DNA of 64,000 nt. It comes from Candidatus Marinacidobacterales bacterium (lineage in GTDB: Bacteria; Acidobacteriota; Vicinamibacteria; Marinacidobacterales; DATDRI01). Where the stretch lies: contig CBDCNP010000002.1 in NCBI GenBank assembly GCA_965219415.1, positions 5,248,001 through 5,312,000 on the forward strand. The letters are read 5' to 3'. Positions 34,377 to 49,613 of this stretch are shown piece by piece (within the stretch, counting starts at the first letter, position 1; each line of letters opens with the position of its first letter). The notes beneath the pieces are model-generated. The model did not search any database, was not told the origin of the DNA, and worked only from the letters and a program-made list of their open reading frames with translations. Both the position numbers and the translations under genes were made by a program.

Positions 34377-35577
34377 GGTGCTTCCGCCATCAAGTGTTGC
34401 TACGCGGCTGCGGGCAGTGGTACAGGTGTGGAAGAGACCGGGTTGCGCGCCCTAGTGAGCAGGAAAACCTCGATCCGCAACCACAAAGGAATCGTCGTCG
34501 CCAAGAAGATGTCTCGAAAGGTGAGCCGTCGCGTGGTCAGACCGGCTTGCATAGCCGGAGTTCGGATCTCACGTCCGAACTTCAGAGCTCCGTGCGGTCG
34601 GACGAAGTTGTAATAGCAACGGAGCAACTCCAGGTGCTCATCGAGCCTCTCCGTCGAGCGAGCGTGGGAAAGCGTTCGTCTCGAAAGGTATGCCGAGCTT
34701 TGCCGGATGGTCAGATTCAACCGCTCGATGAACGACGTGTTCAATGTCGAGGAGTCCTCGGAGTTATTGAGCGCGTCTTCGAATCGCCACGCGGCTCCGT
34801 GCAGCACTCTGCGTTCGACCTTGATGATACGATCGTTCCTGCGCGTCTTGAGGACCTGGCCGTAGAGACACGCTGGCCCGAAGAAGCGACGGATGACCTT
34901 CTGGTAGAATTCGAATCCATCCGTGACGATCAAGGGAAGACGCTCGAAATTCATCCGCCTCGAAAGGTCGCGAAACAGAGCGTGAGTGTTCCGGTAGCTT
35001 CGCCTTCCCGTCACCGTCGATGGCCAGAGCCGAGACCAGACCTCGATCGTAACGAAGACCCAACTCGGCGTCTTCTTGTTGCCCGCGAACGTGCGAATCT
35101 CGTCGGCTTGAAGCTCTTCGGCAGCGAAGCCGGCGATCCTTCTGTGATTGAATCGACGACACACTTGGGCTGCCTTCTCGAGCCAGCGGGCGACGGTGTT
35201 CCAGGCAATCCCTTTGATCCGGGAAATCGCAGCAATGCTGACAACCTCGACTCTGAGGAGCGATGACCCCATCGAAAGTAGCTCTTCGATGTTGGAGACG
35301 GTAGTAGGGCGTGCCTTTCGTCGAAGAGAACGTCTTTCCGCACTCGCCGCACCGGTATCGACGGCGTTTCCCGGACCTCGTTCTGTAGAATCCGTTGTGA
35401 ATAATGCTTCTGGAACCGACTTTTCCATACGACGGACATACGGGATTGAGACATCTGCGATTCTTCACTTTGGCTCGGCCCTGACGATGAGAGAACTGTG
35501 TCTTCAGAATTCTGGTTCAAACTCTAGCACGCGAACGGGTTACGCGGCAGCCACCAACACTTCATGGCGGAAGCACC
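34377..35577 (-). mobile_element. IS1-family element, copy 2 (1-nt frameshift), no TSD
   Basis: Both TIRs; near-identical to 15754-16953. Confidence 0.92.
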
Positions 35578-37740: not shown

Positions 37741-37834
37741 TGTAATCCGCAAAAAAGAAGATCGGCCAGAAGCAGCCGACCATAGCAAGTCTAAAGCGCG
37801 CAATCAACGCTGGATGGACTTTTTGCGGAGCACA
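37741..37834. mobile_element. 94-bp MITE (type B ends)
   Basis: TGTAATCCGCAAAAAAG ... CTTTTTGCGGAGCACA. Confidence 0.75.
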
Positions 37835-37919
37835 ACCGGCACTGGTGACCTGACTCCCATTGCCGAAGTGAAGCAAGGTCAATCCAGAGTGGAGGGGAGC
37901 CGTGAACTCCAGGCCTAGC

Positions 37920-38124
37920 TATGATTCCGAAACGCCCTGGCGCGTGGGTCTTGAGTGCGTTTGTATTTTTGGACACGACGCGCGTAGCAACACTTGATGG
38001 CGGAAGGCACCAAACGGGGAGAAACAGATAGGCCGCGCCTACGGAGCACCGCGCCAGCCCTCGACCCTACCGGGGTTGCTACGTTTCTACCATCGGGAAG
38101 CCGCATGAGTATTTTGACCTCACG
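37920..38124. mobile_element. Concatenated termini: type A end, IS1 right TIR, group II intron 3' stub, type C end
   Basis: 37920-37980, 37981-38011, 38012-38070 and 38071-38124 each match longer copies elsewhere in the window. Confidence 0.8.
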
Positions 38125-38439
38125 GCCGTACGTTCGCCACCTCGACTGGAGACGTGACGCTGACTGAGCGGGGTTCTGAATGGCCCCACAAGCGCGGCGC
38201 TACCACCCCGTCGTGTCCAAGAACACGAACGAGCTCAAGACCCGCGCTCACGATGACGCCACAGACCCGGGAGTAGAAAACGGCGCGTCTGTGAATCGGT
38301 GCGTCACCTGCTGACTCGGCTGCCCATCGGCACCGCGAGGTGCTTCCGCCATCAAGTGATGGAATGGACTCCTCCACTGACATAGACGGCATCGATGTGC
38401 CAAAGTCAGTCGAATACGCATCGAAAAGGAGGAGTCCGA

Positions 38440-39471
38440 ATGAAAGATACGACAATCGCTGTGGATCTTGCAAAGAACGTCTTCGAGATTGCCATCTCGG
38501 GAGAAGCGGGGAAGGTGTCCAAGCAACTCCGTGTGAGTCGACCCAAATTGGTGTCGTTCTTTGCCAAACAGAGCGCTGCCACCGTGCTTCTCGAAGCCTG
38601 CGGCTCGGCTCACTTCTGGGCAAGGACGTTCCGAAGGTTGGGACACGACGTCGTCCTGCTCCCACCTCACCTCGTGAGGCCGTATCGACGCGGGAGCAAG
38701 AACGACCGCGCCGACACGAAGGCGTTGCTCGAGGCCTACAGGAACGAGGAGCTTCTTCCCGTACCCATCAAGTCCGTGCACCAGCACACCCTCGCTGCGC
38801 TCCATCGCCTGCGCTCAGGATGGCTCTCCACACGGACCGCACGCATCAATGCCGTACGCGGGCTCCTGCGCGAACTCGGATTCATCATCCCAAAGGGCGC
38901 TCACTTCGTCGTGCCCGCCCTCTTCGAACTCGTCGAAGACGCTGATTCTGATTTGCCCGACGTGCTCCGTTCGCATCTCCGTGATGCCTGCTCCGAGATT
39001 CGAGAACTCAAGGACAAGTGCGCTAGCATCGAGCACGAGCTCAAGGCGCTCACCAAGCAGCTTCCTGAAGTCCAACGACTTCTCGCCATTCCCGGCATCG
39101 GACTTCTGGCCGCGACCGCCATCGTGGGCTTCGTCGGCGATCTTCGCCGCTTCCCATCGGGGCGCCGCTTCTCGAGCTACCTCGGCCTAGTTCCCAAGGA
39201 AAACTCCAGTGGCGACATTCGCCGCCTCGGACGCATCACCAAGCGTGGCGACTCCTACCTCCGTATGCTCCTCACCCAGGGCGGGCGCGCCGTGCTCCGC
39301 GCGGCGAACGTCAGCAAGAGCCCGCCCGACAAGCTCCGCGCCTGGGCTCGGAAGGTCCACCGCTCGCGGGGACACAACAAGGCCGTGATTGCTGTCGCCA
39401 ACAAACTCGCCCGGATCGTCTGGGCCGTCTCCACCCGCGAGAGTGAATTCCAGTCGCCGGTGGCCGCTTAG
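38440..39471 (+). CDS. IS110/IS1111 DEDD recombinase
   Basis: AVDLAKNVF, LEACGSAHFW, KNDRADT, IPGIG, YLGLVPKENSSG (catalytic Ser region), GRITKRGDSYLR, AVANKLARI; RBS AGGAGG. Confidence 0.96.
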   Translation: MKDTTIAVDLAKNVFEIAISGEAGKVSKQLRVSRPKLVSFFAKQSAATVLLEACGSAHFWARTFRRLGHDVVLLPPHLVRPYRRGSKNDRADTKALLEAYRNEELLPVPIKSVHQHTLAALHRLRSGWLSTRTARINAVRGLLRELGFIIPKGAHFVVPALFELVEDADSDLPDVLRSHLRDACSEIRELKDKCASIEHELKALTKQLPEVQRLLAIPGIGLLAATAIVGFVGDLRRFPSGRRFSSYLGLVPKENSSGDIRRLGRITKRGDSYLRMLLTQGGRAVLRAANVSKSPPDKLRAWARKVHRSRGHNKAVIAVANKLARIVWAVSTRESEFQSPVAA

Positions 39472-39519
39472 ATTTAGAGGCTCCACTTTCGTGTTTTCCT
39501 TTTTCCCTTCCAAAAGAGG

Positions 39520-39700
39520 CTGCGACGATACCCATCCAACTGATGGCGTACCGGTCGGACCGGCGCGGGGTCAAGCCAATAGCAACACTGGCCCTAAGAG
39601 GTCGTTCAAAGTGATTGGCTCCTCGCGCGCGGATTTTCCATCATGGCCCGGAGCACCCAAGACGCTCCTCACTGAGGCCGAAGATACGTTTGCAGTCTGA
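39520..39700 (+). ncRNA. Predicted bridge/seek RNA (boundaries approximate)
   Basis: Internal-loop guides match target (39580-39589, 39609-39613) and donor junction (39636-39644, 39682-39688). Confidence 0.85.
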
Positions 39701-39803
39701 CCCACTCGTCACGACGCGATGGATGCGCAGCTTCGATGGAAGATTTATTAAGAAAGGGGCGTGACTAGAAAGAAAGGGGCTTGACTAGAGGAGTCCAGAT
39801 ATG

Positions 39804-40462
39804 TTGCTACACGGCTGCGGGCAGTGGTACAGGTGCGGAAGAGACCGGGTTGCGCGCCCCAGTGAGCAGGAAAACCTCGATCCGCGACCACAAAGGAATC
39901 GTCGTCGCCAAGAAGATGTCTCGAAAGGTGAGCCGTCGCGTGGTCAGACCGGCCTGCATAGCCGGAGTTCGGATCTCACGTCCGAACTTCAGAGCTCCGT
40001 GCGGTCGGACGAAGTTGTAATAGCAACGGAGCAACTCCAGGTGCTCATCGAGCCTCTCCGTCGAGCGAGCGTGGGAAAGCGTTCGTCTCGAAAGGTATGC
40101 CGAGCTTTGCCGGATGGTCAGATTCAACCGCTCGATGAACGACGTGTTCAATGTCGAGGAGTCCTCGGAGTTATTGAGCGCGTCTTCGAATCGCCACGCG
40201 GCTCCGTGCAGCGCTCTCCGTTCGACCTTGATGATACGATTGTTCCTGCGCGTCTTGAGGACCTGGCCGTAGAGACACGCTGGCCCGAAGAAGCGACGGA
40301 TGACCTTCTGGTAGAATTCGAATCCATCCGTGACGATCAAGGGAAGATGCCCGAAATTCATCCGCCTCGAAAGGTCGCGAAACAAAGCGTGAGTGTTCCG
40401 GTAGCTTCGCCTTCCCGTCACCGTTGATGGCCAGAGCCGAGACCAGACCTCGATCGTAACGA
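39804..40462 (-). pseudogene. IS1-family copy 3, 3' half
   Basis: Matches about 16275-16933; complements 49091-49613. Confidence 0.9.
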
Positions 40463-41548
40463 GCAGCCTTTAACCAAGACATGGTGGGAGCGAAGCTCAG
40501 CCTAGGTCCACGCTCGGCGATACTGGGCCAGACCCCCTTCTCCCTACGGAGTTTTGTGAACGACGTCGCGGTGAGTGTTTTCGAGACGGTGCGCAAGGGC
40601 AATACGGCTTTCCCGTTCACGCGCGGCGATACGGACGAAGGGGCCTTCCTGCGGCCGATGGTTGCGACGCTTGGCACTCGCGAGCCTTTTTGGGCGATGG
40701 TGGTCCCGGCTTTCGGCAATACCGATCACTTGGTCTTTAACGATGGACGGGTTGGAGTCCCAGCGGTGTCCCTAGACAACTGGCCGGATCCGTATATCCA
40801 TTCCAGTGACGACGATCTTTGGCAAGTCGACCCGACTCAACTCGAGAGAAACGCCTTCGTCGTGGCCGCGACGGCTTACACCGTCGCTTCGTTGGGAGAG
40901 CCCCACGTCGACCGCCTCGCGGTCTTGCTGCAGGGAGGGGCGCAGACAAGGCTAGGACGAGACGGGGCGTCGGCGCTGGCGCGTCTCGTAGACGACTCGG
41001 CCGGATCCATTTCCTCTCGGTACAAGGATGCCGAGATGCTCCTCTCGGTGTCCACCGCTCGAGAGATCGCTACCATCGATTCCGCGCTGGTCCTGGTTTC
41101 CCCCGGCGGTGCCGGTGAGAGGCTGTTGAAGCAAGTCCGGGCACGGGTGAGCAACCTCGGTCGGACGCTTCAAGAAGACGTGGGTGCGTTCTACGAGGAG
41201 CGAACCGGCCAAGCTCCCAGGAGCGAGCGTTCCCCCCATGAAAAGGCGGCGGCCGAGAGAGTGCCGGAAAGGACGATGTCCCTAGCGGAGAGTTTGGAAA
41301 AAATGATGCGGAGAGGAGGCCCGGGTGCTGACATCGAAGGGTTGCATCGTCTTTATCAAACCGAGGTGCGCAACCTGGTTGATGGAAAACGGACCGTGCT
41401 CGATATCTACCGAACGGTGAGGGCGGCCTCACTCTCGGCCGGCGAGTGGTACTACAGTCCGGTCGAGCTCGACGATGTGGTCGCGGTGCTCGAAGCTTCC
41501 GAGAAGGCGGGCGCTATCCGCTTTAGAGGCGGTGATAGTAATCAGTAA
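40463..41548 (+). pseudogene. M28-family peptidase, C-terminal half
   Basis: AAFNQDMVGA, TDH.VF.D..VGVP.V, YIHSSDD...VDPTQL.R. Confidence 0.8.
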
Positions 41549-49090: not shown

Positions 49091-49613
49091 GGTGCTTCCG
49101 CAATTAAGTGCTGGCGGCCAACCCCTAACCCGTCTGCGTGCTAGAGTTAGAGCCAGAATTCTGAAGACACAGTTCTCTCATCGTCAGGGCCGAGCCGAAG
49201 TGAAGAATCGCAGATGTCTCAATCCCGCATGTCCGTCGTATGGAAAAGTCGGTTCCAGAAGTATTATTCACAACGGATTCTACAGAACAAGGTCCGGGAA
49301 ACGCCGTCGATACCGGTGCGGCGAGTGCGGAAAGACGTTCTCTTCGACGAAAGGCACGCCCTACTACCGTCTCCAACATCGAAGAGCTACTTTCGATGGG
49401 GTCATCGCTCTCAGAGTCGAGGGTGTCAGCATTTCCTCGATTTTCCGGATCAAAGGGATTGCCTGGAACACCGTCGCCCGCTGGCTCGAGAAGGCAGCCC
49501 AAGTGTGTCGTCGATTCAATCACAGAAGGATCGCTGGCTTCGCTGCCAAAGAGCTTCAAGCCGACGAGATTAGCACGTCCGCGGGCAACAAGAAGACGCC
49601 GAGTTGGGTCTTC
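49091..49613 (+). pseudogene. IS1-family copy 3, 5' half
   Basis: Left TIR and transposase up to TPSWVF. Confidence 0.9.

Follow-up and report, generated by a model that had tools for sequence, protein, structure and literature searches.

The insertion sequences (ISs) of the IS110 and IS1111 kind were reported in 2024 to find their targets under RNA guidance (PMC11208160, PMC11187229), and dependence on a seekRNA or bridge RNA has been demonstrated experimentally for members of the family (PMC11187229, PMC11208160). It has likewise been published that IS1111 members have the RNA in their right end and its guides in reversed order (PMC11208160, PMC11187229). As described for the IS1111 group (PMC11187229), the longer noncoding region lies downstream of the transposase gene, the subterminal inverted repeats are usually 11–13 bp long, and the terminal extensions measure 7 bp on the left and 3 bp on the right. 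IS4321 and IS5075 target the 38-bp terminal repeats of Tn21-family transposons (PMC11208160, PMC11187229), while ISPa25, ISKpn4 and ISPst6 belong to the IS1111-attC group. We analyzed a 64,000-nt window of a Candidatus Marinacidobacterales bacterium genome (GCA_965219415.1, contig CBDCNP010000002.1, positions 5,248,001–5,312,000, forward strand; an assembly of 8.05 Mb in three contigs) and describe an IS1111-group insertion sequence at 38359–39803 on the + strand, all coordinates being positions in this window. We hold with high confidence that it is an IS1111-type RNA-guided element whose 3' RNA would carry guides both for the terminal repeat of an IS1-like element and for its own joined ends. 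The sequences themselves show how the element is built, how specific it is for its site, that occupancy depends on guide complementarity and that guides covary with targets.

The limits of the element were set by uninterrupted copies of its target, giving a length of 1445 bp with one TG counted. It starts at 38359 with ATGGAAT (the longer left end reads ATGGAATGGACTCCTCC) and ends at 39803 with CCAGATATG, also read as GAGGAGTCCAGATATG. To its left lie the outer 20 bp of the host terminal inverted repeat, GGTGCTTCCGCCATCAAGTG (38339–38358, + strand; read directly from the sequence), whose final TG is the crossover dinucleotide, and to its right, at 39804–39810, stands TTGCTAC, the inner 7 bp of the same repeat. 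TG is found at both junctions (38357–38358 and 39802–39803) and is the sole sequence that they share, so the element limits are fixed to within 2 nt; sliding the boundaries by these 2 nt gives 38357–39801, the convention of the seekRNA authors. Excising 38359–39803 in silico restores a 27-mer that is present uninterrupted in the window at 34377–34403 and in 59 exact copies in the genome. A preliminary description of the locus had named these coordinates and strings, the TG at both junctions and a right terminal inverted repeat, assigned there to IS1, that excision restores; all coordinates and strings were rechecked on the sequence and hold. The left junction, 38349–38364, is palindromic (CCATCA-AG-TGATGG), possibly by coincidence.

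The left subterminal inverted repeat, GGACTCCTC (38366–38374, + strand), follows the terminal extension ATGGAAT (38359–38365), and the right one, GAGGAGTCC (39788–39796, + strand), is followed by the extension AGATA plus TG (39797–39803). The two match perfectly over 9 bp, over 10 bp with the next T/A pair and over 11 bp with one mismatched outer pair, slightly shorter than is typical of IS1111; with the TG assigned to the left (38357–39801) and the repeat counted as 11 bp, the terminal extensions measure 7 and 3 bp. Noncoding DNA amounts to 332 nt 3' of the transposase gene (39472–39803) versus 81 nt 5' of it (38359–38439). This is the layout, with a 3' noncoding region and subterminal repeats, by which Siddiquee et al. 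recognize IS1111 elements (PMC11187229). The transposase gene itself (38440–39471, + strand, 343 aa) is preceded by a strong AAGGAGGAG at 38426–38434 and was identified by Pfam (PF01548, DEDD_Tnp_IS110, 6.9e-12; PF02371, Transposase_20, 3.2e-24; each above its gathering score) and by the NCBIfam model NF033542, "IS110 family RNA-guided transposase," with 302.9 bits against a cut-off of 140. Its C-terminal domain aligns with the ISCro4 and IS621 transposases in the PDB. The motif GL-P----S(T)G, the C-terminal signature defined in PMC11187229, is present as GLVPKENSSG within YLGLVPKENSSG and was aligned to GLTPRRYESG of the ISCro4 transposase with SG in register. By analogy with the published family mechanism, from which its catalysis is taken over, the element would be an autonomous IS1111-group IS of the IS110 family encoding a DEDD/serine RNA-guided recombinase.

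The 3' noncoding region contains a predicted bridge/seek RNA scaffold of about 150 nt (39553–39702, + strand), delimited on the minimum-free-energy fold and alignable across 18–20 relatives. A long-range stem, in which GGUCGGAC (39553–39560) pairs with GUCUGACC (39695–39702), encloses two hairpins. The target-binding hairpin (39563–39628, + strand) consists of a basal stem, a GCCAAU/AUUGGC stem, an internal loop and an inner stem-loop; it has 16 consensus pairs, many of them with compensatory changes, and GCCAAT at 39575–39580 pairs with ATTGGC at 39614–39619 in the minimum-free-energy fold. On the 5' side of its loop, the putative 5' target guide UAGCAACACU (DNA TAGCAACACT, 39580–39589, + strand) complements the top strand AG-TG-TTGCTA, pairing across the core and into the right half of the target. 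The 3' side of the loop reads ...CAAAGUG and holds the putative 3' target guide AAGUG (DNA AAGTG, 39609–39613, + strand), which has the top-strand sequence AAG-TG and would pair with the bottom strand; the two target guides overlap on AGTG. In the donor-binding hairpin (39629–39694, + strand; from fold and consensus), two further guides lie on opposite sides of a loop around UGGCC...GGCCG: UUCCAUCAU (DNA TTCCATCAT, 39636–39644, + strand) complements A-TG-ATGGAA of the predicted joined ends at 9/9 positions, and AGAUACG (DNA AGATACG, 39682–39688, + strand) agrees with the right end plus core, AGATA-TG, at 6/7. The complement of the top strand thus lies 5' of the complement of the bottom strand and the two overlap in the target, the same guide order as is reported for IS1111 seekRNAs (PMC11187229).

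The four guide strings of the preliminary description were found at the positions given for them, with the donor matches of 9/9 and 6/7, and its GCCAAU/AUUGGC stem is present, with the target guides in an unpaired consensus loop rather than in a paired stem. With RNAalifold on 18 relatives, we obtained 27 pairs, 12 of them with compensatory changes; the consensus leaves the target guides in the unpaired internal loop and contains three pairs between the two donor guides. When the sequence is folded singly, two to three guide bases per side pair with each other, as is expected because both guides of a loop read one core from opposite strands. We assessed chance matches with 2000 dinucleotide-preserving shuffles of the noncoding region, excluding its last 25 nt. 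An exact match of at least 10 nt to the target appeared in 19 of the 2000 shuffles, a match of at least 9 nt to the circle junction in 53, and the two together in 2.

Copies of the element elsewhere in the genome define its site specificity. About 30 are full length and 99–100% identical, with a few fragments in addition, and a search with the element ends returned 33 left junctions and 32 right-end matches. All 33 left junctions fall at one base of one repeat in a single orientation; they are preceded by GGTGCTTCCGCCATCAAGTG (30 exactly, 3 with one change) and fit GGTGCTTC(C/T)GC(C/T)ATCAAGTG. For 30 of the 33, a right junction could be paired, reading TTGCTA in 29 cases and TTGGCGG in one; the 32nd right-end match is the internal joint of a copy with a duplicated 3' region. 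No target duplication was seen, the 2-nt TG alone being common to both junctions. The outer flanks are unique in 32 of the 33, and the copies are therefore separate loci. Fifteen junctions lie in a 1.2-kb IS, 10 and 2 in two short repeats bounded by inverted repeats, for which we use the label MITE (miniature inverted-repeat transposable element; MITE-A, ~240 bp, and MITE-B, respectively), 3 were unclassed, and 3 are truncated and without a right junction. By eye, two of the unclassed three are a 1.2-kb IS and a MITE-A carrying an indel each, and the third is the TTGGCGG end. The use of the same site in different host bodies argues for independent entries and not for carriage by one host element.

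The GGTGCTTCCGCC... repeat family, with several end-types (GGTGA, GGTGG, GGTAA, GGCGG and GCTAC), has 603 ends in the genome, where IS1-like elements and MITEs have expanded to an unusual extent; 570 of these ends are empty. We scored the sites against AAGTGTTGCTA, the eleven bases under both target guides, and found 77 empty sites with no mismatch, 42 with one, 195 with two, 99 with three and 157 with four or more. Perfect sites are occupied in 29 of 106 cases (27%), in comparison with 1 of 337 (0.3%) among sites with one to three mismatches (odds ratio 127, p = 9e-19). For most near-cognate ends the sole difference is TTG-GTGA or TTG-GTGG in place of TTG-CTAC, which affects bases under the 5' guide only. 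Outside the repeat, the 10-mer AGTGTTGCTA is filled in 0 of 33 cases (p = 1.6e-4 against the perfect repeat sites), which indicates that bases further left matter too.

The constant flanks could in principle reflect common descent, with a segment immobile by itself being spread inside an IS1-like element or MITE by the IS1-type transposase. The near-identity of all copies, the recurrence of the same 20-bp and 7-bp flanks and the high repetition of the host elements, with their 603 repeat-like ends, are all compatible with such a history. The insert, however, occurs in at least three unrelated host bodies and at one end of the opposite type, and the 77 perfect sites are empty; seven insertions of a 94% variant, in a related genome, lie outside such repeats, and more distant relatives carry the same scaffold in quite different sequences. 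We regard this explanation as already largely refuted and give it almost no credence.

Relatives with 93–98% amino-acid identity are found in other genomes of the same order, and the copies with 92–98% DNA identity in these genomes use the same host repeat at 38 of 45 distinct left junctions. Together with the 33 of this genome, these make 78 left junctions, every one of which has AGTG, the four bases that both target guides read. When 401 genomes of the phylum were searched, 18 further genomes yielded relatives at 46–62% identity, to which we added a relative from a Steroidobacteraceae record (L089), and the 3' regions of the distant relatives could be aligned over the entire scaffold. Covariation was scored for 16 of 20 aligned elements, those with both junctions known; L122, L132, L134 and L137 were excluded, one of their junctions being lost to a contig end or decay. 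L039 (54% identity) was kept in one scaffold alignment but left out of the junction table, its left end not having been found, and its loops do not match its right flank. For L130, the right junction was shifted by 2 nt once it was seen that two extra bases separated the regex-defined end from the guide-matched site.

Loop segments were taken by alignment column and junctions from the conserved ends, and the score was the sum of the longest exact matches to the flanks. The mean score was 12.3 for cognate combinations versus 6.4 for noncognate ones (212 pairs with dissimilar targets), and in 14 of the 16 members the own flanks scored above those of any nonsimilar member, the covariation of guide and target that the preliminary description had proposed to look for. 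The 16 members form about 12 distinct guide–target groups, of which about 10 are supportive. L026, for example, has the 5' guide GCAACUGCGU and the 3' guide GUCCGGACG with flanks ...GTCCAGA-TG and CG-CAGTTG; L089 has (G)GAAGGAUCGU and GUCUUUG with ...GGTCTT-TG and CG-ATCCTT; and L130 has CUAGGAGCGUU and CUCGGACG with ...CTCGGA-TG and CG-CTCCTAG. The homologous loop positions of the 5' target guide match the relatives' own right flanks. The donor guides change in the same manner: the 5' donor guide tracks the left end (UUCCAU with ATGGAA, but UCCCAU with ATGGGA in L026), the donor guide of L131 has CC with a GG core, and the 3' donor guide tracks the right end (AGAUA with CCAGATA, AUAUA with CCATATA and AUACA with CCATACA). 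The IS1111-type RNA-guided reading put forward in the preliminary description thus agrees with the transposase family, the 33 of 33 junctions, the occupancy, the position of the guides in loops and the covariation.

Several observations weigh against this reading, and some of them are what one would expect if the site were chosen by the protein alone or by the structure of the repeat DNA, the matches in the noncoding region being incidental or serving end recognition only. The 3' target guide, which would read the bottom strand, is just 5 nt long. Seven of the 45 left junctions in related genomes are elsewhere than in the repeat, all from the 94% variant in one related genome (L065, L066, L067, L069, L070, L073 and L083); these off-target copies keep AGTG alone, on the left, and their right halves match TTGCTAC at 1–5 of 7 bases. 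One insertion in the genome studied here, with the right flank TTGGCGG, has a similarly poor right-half match, and insertions of this kind mean that a guide match is not an absolute requirement. The preliminary description had named insertions at unrelated sites as evidence against it; this genome has none among its 33 left junctions, while the related genomes conform at 38 junctions and depart at the seven, AGTG being kept there. The RNA itself was not observed, and the contigs from RNA libraries are uninformative about transcription. Choice by protein or DNA structure, on the other hand, hardly accommodates conserved stems whose loops vary with the flanks (14 of 16 relatives), or an occupancy that drops about 100-fold with one to three mismatches lying only under the 5' guide, and dependence on RNA has been shown experimentally in the family (PMC11187229, PMC11208160). 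We consider it highly unlikely.

The remaining counterpoints concern the guides, their conservation and their expression. AGAUACG differs at one base from the element's own TG, and among the relatives the 5' guide shifts by 1–3 nt in its register to the crossover. L131 and L136 do not match their own flanks best, and the relatives are not independent of each other, so that the covariation counts overstate the evidence. An Rfam scan of 37800–41000 with E up to 1, the covariance-model search to which the preliminary description had also pointed, gave nothing on the 3' noncoding region, the sole match being a chance miRNA match within the coding region. A promoter scan found no sigma-70-like promoter in the integrated copy. 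Among the Logan contigs of four public runs, we found neither a joint of right end with left end nor a restored target at this locus; the runs are represented by assembled contigs, and the coverage of RNA libraries is uninformative about transcription, circles or habitat. Contigs from RNA libraries (two from marine sediment and one from a sponge) match parts of the gene at 90–99% likeness, and one of them keeps the flanks of the scaffold with 99 other letters in between. A DNA contig of the best-matching run follows the scaffold as far as the stem (window position 39577) and then has a different 5' guide, which points to a differently targeted variant within that sample.

The RNA-guided element would move as follows, the RNA itself, the circle and the catalysis being carried over from the mechanism published for the family. 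The element would be excised as a circle with abutted ends, ...CCAGATA-TG-ATGGAAT..., and an RNA of ~150 nt with two internal loops would hold the circle junction and the target together. The target loop would read the repeat and the donor loop (UUCCAUCAU and AGAUACG) both strands of the joined ends, upon which the recombinase would exchange strands at TG. The target, ...CATCAAG-TG-TTGCTA..., lies 20 bp inside one end-type of the IS1-like family and its miniature derivatives, and a guide-matched site within that repeat would explain why the element always lands there and in one orientation. Close to the right end are two tandem 20-bp units (39750–39789, + strand) of the sequence AAGAAAGGGGC(G/T)TGACTAGA, a unit that contains the -35-like TTGACT. 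The TTGACT of the second unit (39781–39786) would stand 17–18 nt from ATGGAAT or TGGAAT after end joining, and together with the joined left end it is a possible candidate for a junction promoter; such promoters have been described for the family (PMC11187229).

Copies of 1425, 1445 and 1465 bp are found in the genome, consistent with one to three of the 20-bp units. A copy of 1729 bp (G000:C3:3315125-3316853) has a second 3' noncoding region, in which ...CCAGATA is joined via GG to CTGCGACG..., corresponding to window position 39520 onward. It looks like the outcome of an insertion into a weak pseudo-target (AAGAGG-CTGCGAC) of another copy, followed by a deletion.

The core dinucleotide sets the window element apart from its relatives. 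Most relatives have TG at the left junction and CG at the right junction (L121–L147, L026 and L089), and the uninterrupted targets of one multicopy relative in the same genomes (G349, G425 and G433) read ACTTYCACCA-CG-GRCTGCTAG. Since these empty targets read CG, the element brings the T and the target keeps the C; in those relatives, the first core position thus always remains with its own partner. The insertion points of ISKpn4, AA*CG (Table 1, PMC13604230), agree with a CG target, and the view of the seekRNA authors that there is no true target duplication (PMC11187229) agrees with this reading of the core. The window element has TG in its target, in the two target guides and in the 5' donor guide, and retains CG only in the 3' donor guide; the TG core of the preliminary description is thus correct for this element, while its relatives have CG in the target and TG at their own left end. 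The right flanks of several relatives (L121, L124, L129, L136, L142 and L144; L160) are (G)TTGTTAGG or CTGTTAGCC, which we take to be the attC core site. These flanks resemble the integron flank of ISPa25, ACTTGTTAGCC, and the published target of ISKpn4, ...AATTGTTAG. By this likeness, the window element may have descended from attC-targeting elements by a few guide substitutions.

The host of the insertions is represented in the window by an intact copy at 34377–35577, 1201 bp long, with ends alike over 23 nt at 95.7%. It has two overlapping frames on the same strand, the upstream one with CxxC...CxxC; two overlapping frames, a zinc finger upstream and DDE downstream, are the typical layout of IS1. 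The host transposase scored 57.6 bits with NF033558, the IS1 model, below the cut-off of 100, and 20.4 bits with PF03400, below 24.1, whereas its homologues at 65–96% identity carry PF03400, and several were named "IS1 family transposase" by JGI. The IS1 label of the preliminary description therefore draws on direct hits below threshold and on the annotation of close homologues, and IS1-like appears a fair name for the host. The end of a resident IS1-like element is indeed hit, as had been claimed, although not of one IS only: the targets are one end-type common to the 1.2-kb IS and at least two MITEs. Insertion is restricted to the ...TTGCTAC end, toward which the host transposase gene reads, and the other end (...TTGGTGG) is spared except for the single TTGGCGG case.

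At the locus itself, the rest of the host element, TTGCTAC and the 3' part of the transposase gene, lies at 39804–40462 on the - strand, where the copy breaks off; positions 19–679 of the intact copy map to 39802–40462 at 98.2%. The remaining part (positions 678–1201 of the intact copy) is found inverted, ~9 kb away, at 49613–49091, pointing to an inversion or to rearrangement between copies. A solitary repeat copy facing the opposite way stands at 37981–38011, 327 bp upstream of the occupied one; it is empty and has one extra base in its outer part, with the guide-matched CATCAAGTGTTGCTAC intact. A host variant, TTGCTACACGG, was considered as a mark of composite transposition and rejected: its three copies are differently truncated fragments, one of them empty.

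What the insertions do to their hosts can be read in two ways. The repeat may be no more to the element than an abundant and harmless landing pad, a safe harbour in which the host element is not disabled and no antagonism exists. The outer 20 bp of the repeat remain at the tip, and the opposite end lies at the expected distance in 5 of 16 occupied 1.2-kb copies versus 32 of 58 empty ones, a difference that is not significant (Fisher p = 0.16), so that the immobilization put forward in the preliminary description goes beyond these data; other IS1111 members, moreover, use repeats, attC sites and transposon ends as neutral sites (PMC11187229). Against a harmless insertion stands the 1.4 kb placed between the outer 20 bp and the inner remainder of a ~27-bp repeat, by which transposase binding could plausibly be disturbed. 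We give the safe harbour an even chance. A stronger and, in our view, improbable proposal is that the element is a hyper-parasite of the ~600 IS1-like and MITE ends that would disable the copies it enters, their repeat being split 20 bp from the tip, and act as a brake on their expansion, having arisen from an attC lineage via approximately four substitutions in one guide that gave TG/TG cores. If that were true, the lineage would be a natural series for the exchanged core position and for the minimal guide changes needed for retargeting.

Our understanding of how such elements work is unchanged by the RNA-guided element described here, which will not surprise a specialist. It adds a well-documented natural guide–target pair to the IS110/IS1111 recombinases, and does so for a phylum that has seen few experiments, and its 106 perfect versus 337 near-cognate sites make a single genome a natural specificity experiment. 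The relatives, at 46–98% identity and with one scaffold but different guides, should be useful for the mining of compact bridge recombinases and for studies of core tolerance, and the seven off-repeat insertions of the 94% variant form a small natural off-target set.

Among the known systems, the habit of the element is closest to that of IS4321 and IS5075, which are also of IS1111 type and insert in one orientation at a constant point of another transposable element's terminal inverted repeat (PMC11208160, PMC11187229); subterminal repeats and a long 3' noncoding region are shared as well (PMC11187229). The targets differ, being here the ends of IS1-like elements and MITEs in an uncultured environmental bacterium and there those of a Tn3-family transposon on plasmids, and the guide and target sequences are unrelated to those of the window element. 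The transposase is ~41–46% identical to the best plasmid-borne IS1111-type proteins. In the literature searched, we found no IS1111 element aimed at IS1-family ends; ISfinder and supplementary tables lay beyond that search, and a near relative may already be catalogued.

IS621 resembles the window element in its bispecific RNA, with target and donor internal loops that each read both strands and overlap at a 2-nt core (PMC11208160), and in its homologous recombinase, the PDB match covering the C-terminal domain only (E = 9e-8). It differs in that its RNA is encoded 5' of the gene, not 3' as in the window element, and in the order of the guide strands, which is reversed between the two (PMC11208160); the window element also has longer subterminal repeats and the core TG in place of CT.

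The closest named relative that we found is ISPa25 of the IS1111-attC group, with 45.9% amino-acid identity, an identical 17-nt left end, ATGGAATGGACTCCTCC, and the same RNA scaffold, including GAU(U/A)GGC, UGGCC...GGCCG and A(G/U)AUACG. The published guide order of ISKpn4 and ISPa25 matches that of the window element (PMC11187229), and the target of ISKpn4, ...GAATTGTTAG (Table 1, PMC13604230), resembles right flanks such as GTTGTTAGG in several relatives from the phylum search. Unlike these relatives, the window element has a 5' guide that differs from their commonest guide, GAUAACAACCGU, at 4 of 12 loop positions, a transposon end as its target, and TG as both the target and the donor core, the target core of the relatives being CG. 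The mechanism is thus a known one and so is the habit of landing in transposon ends; what is new is the member and the class of its target.

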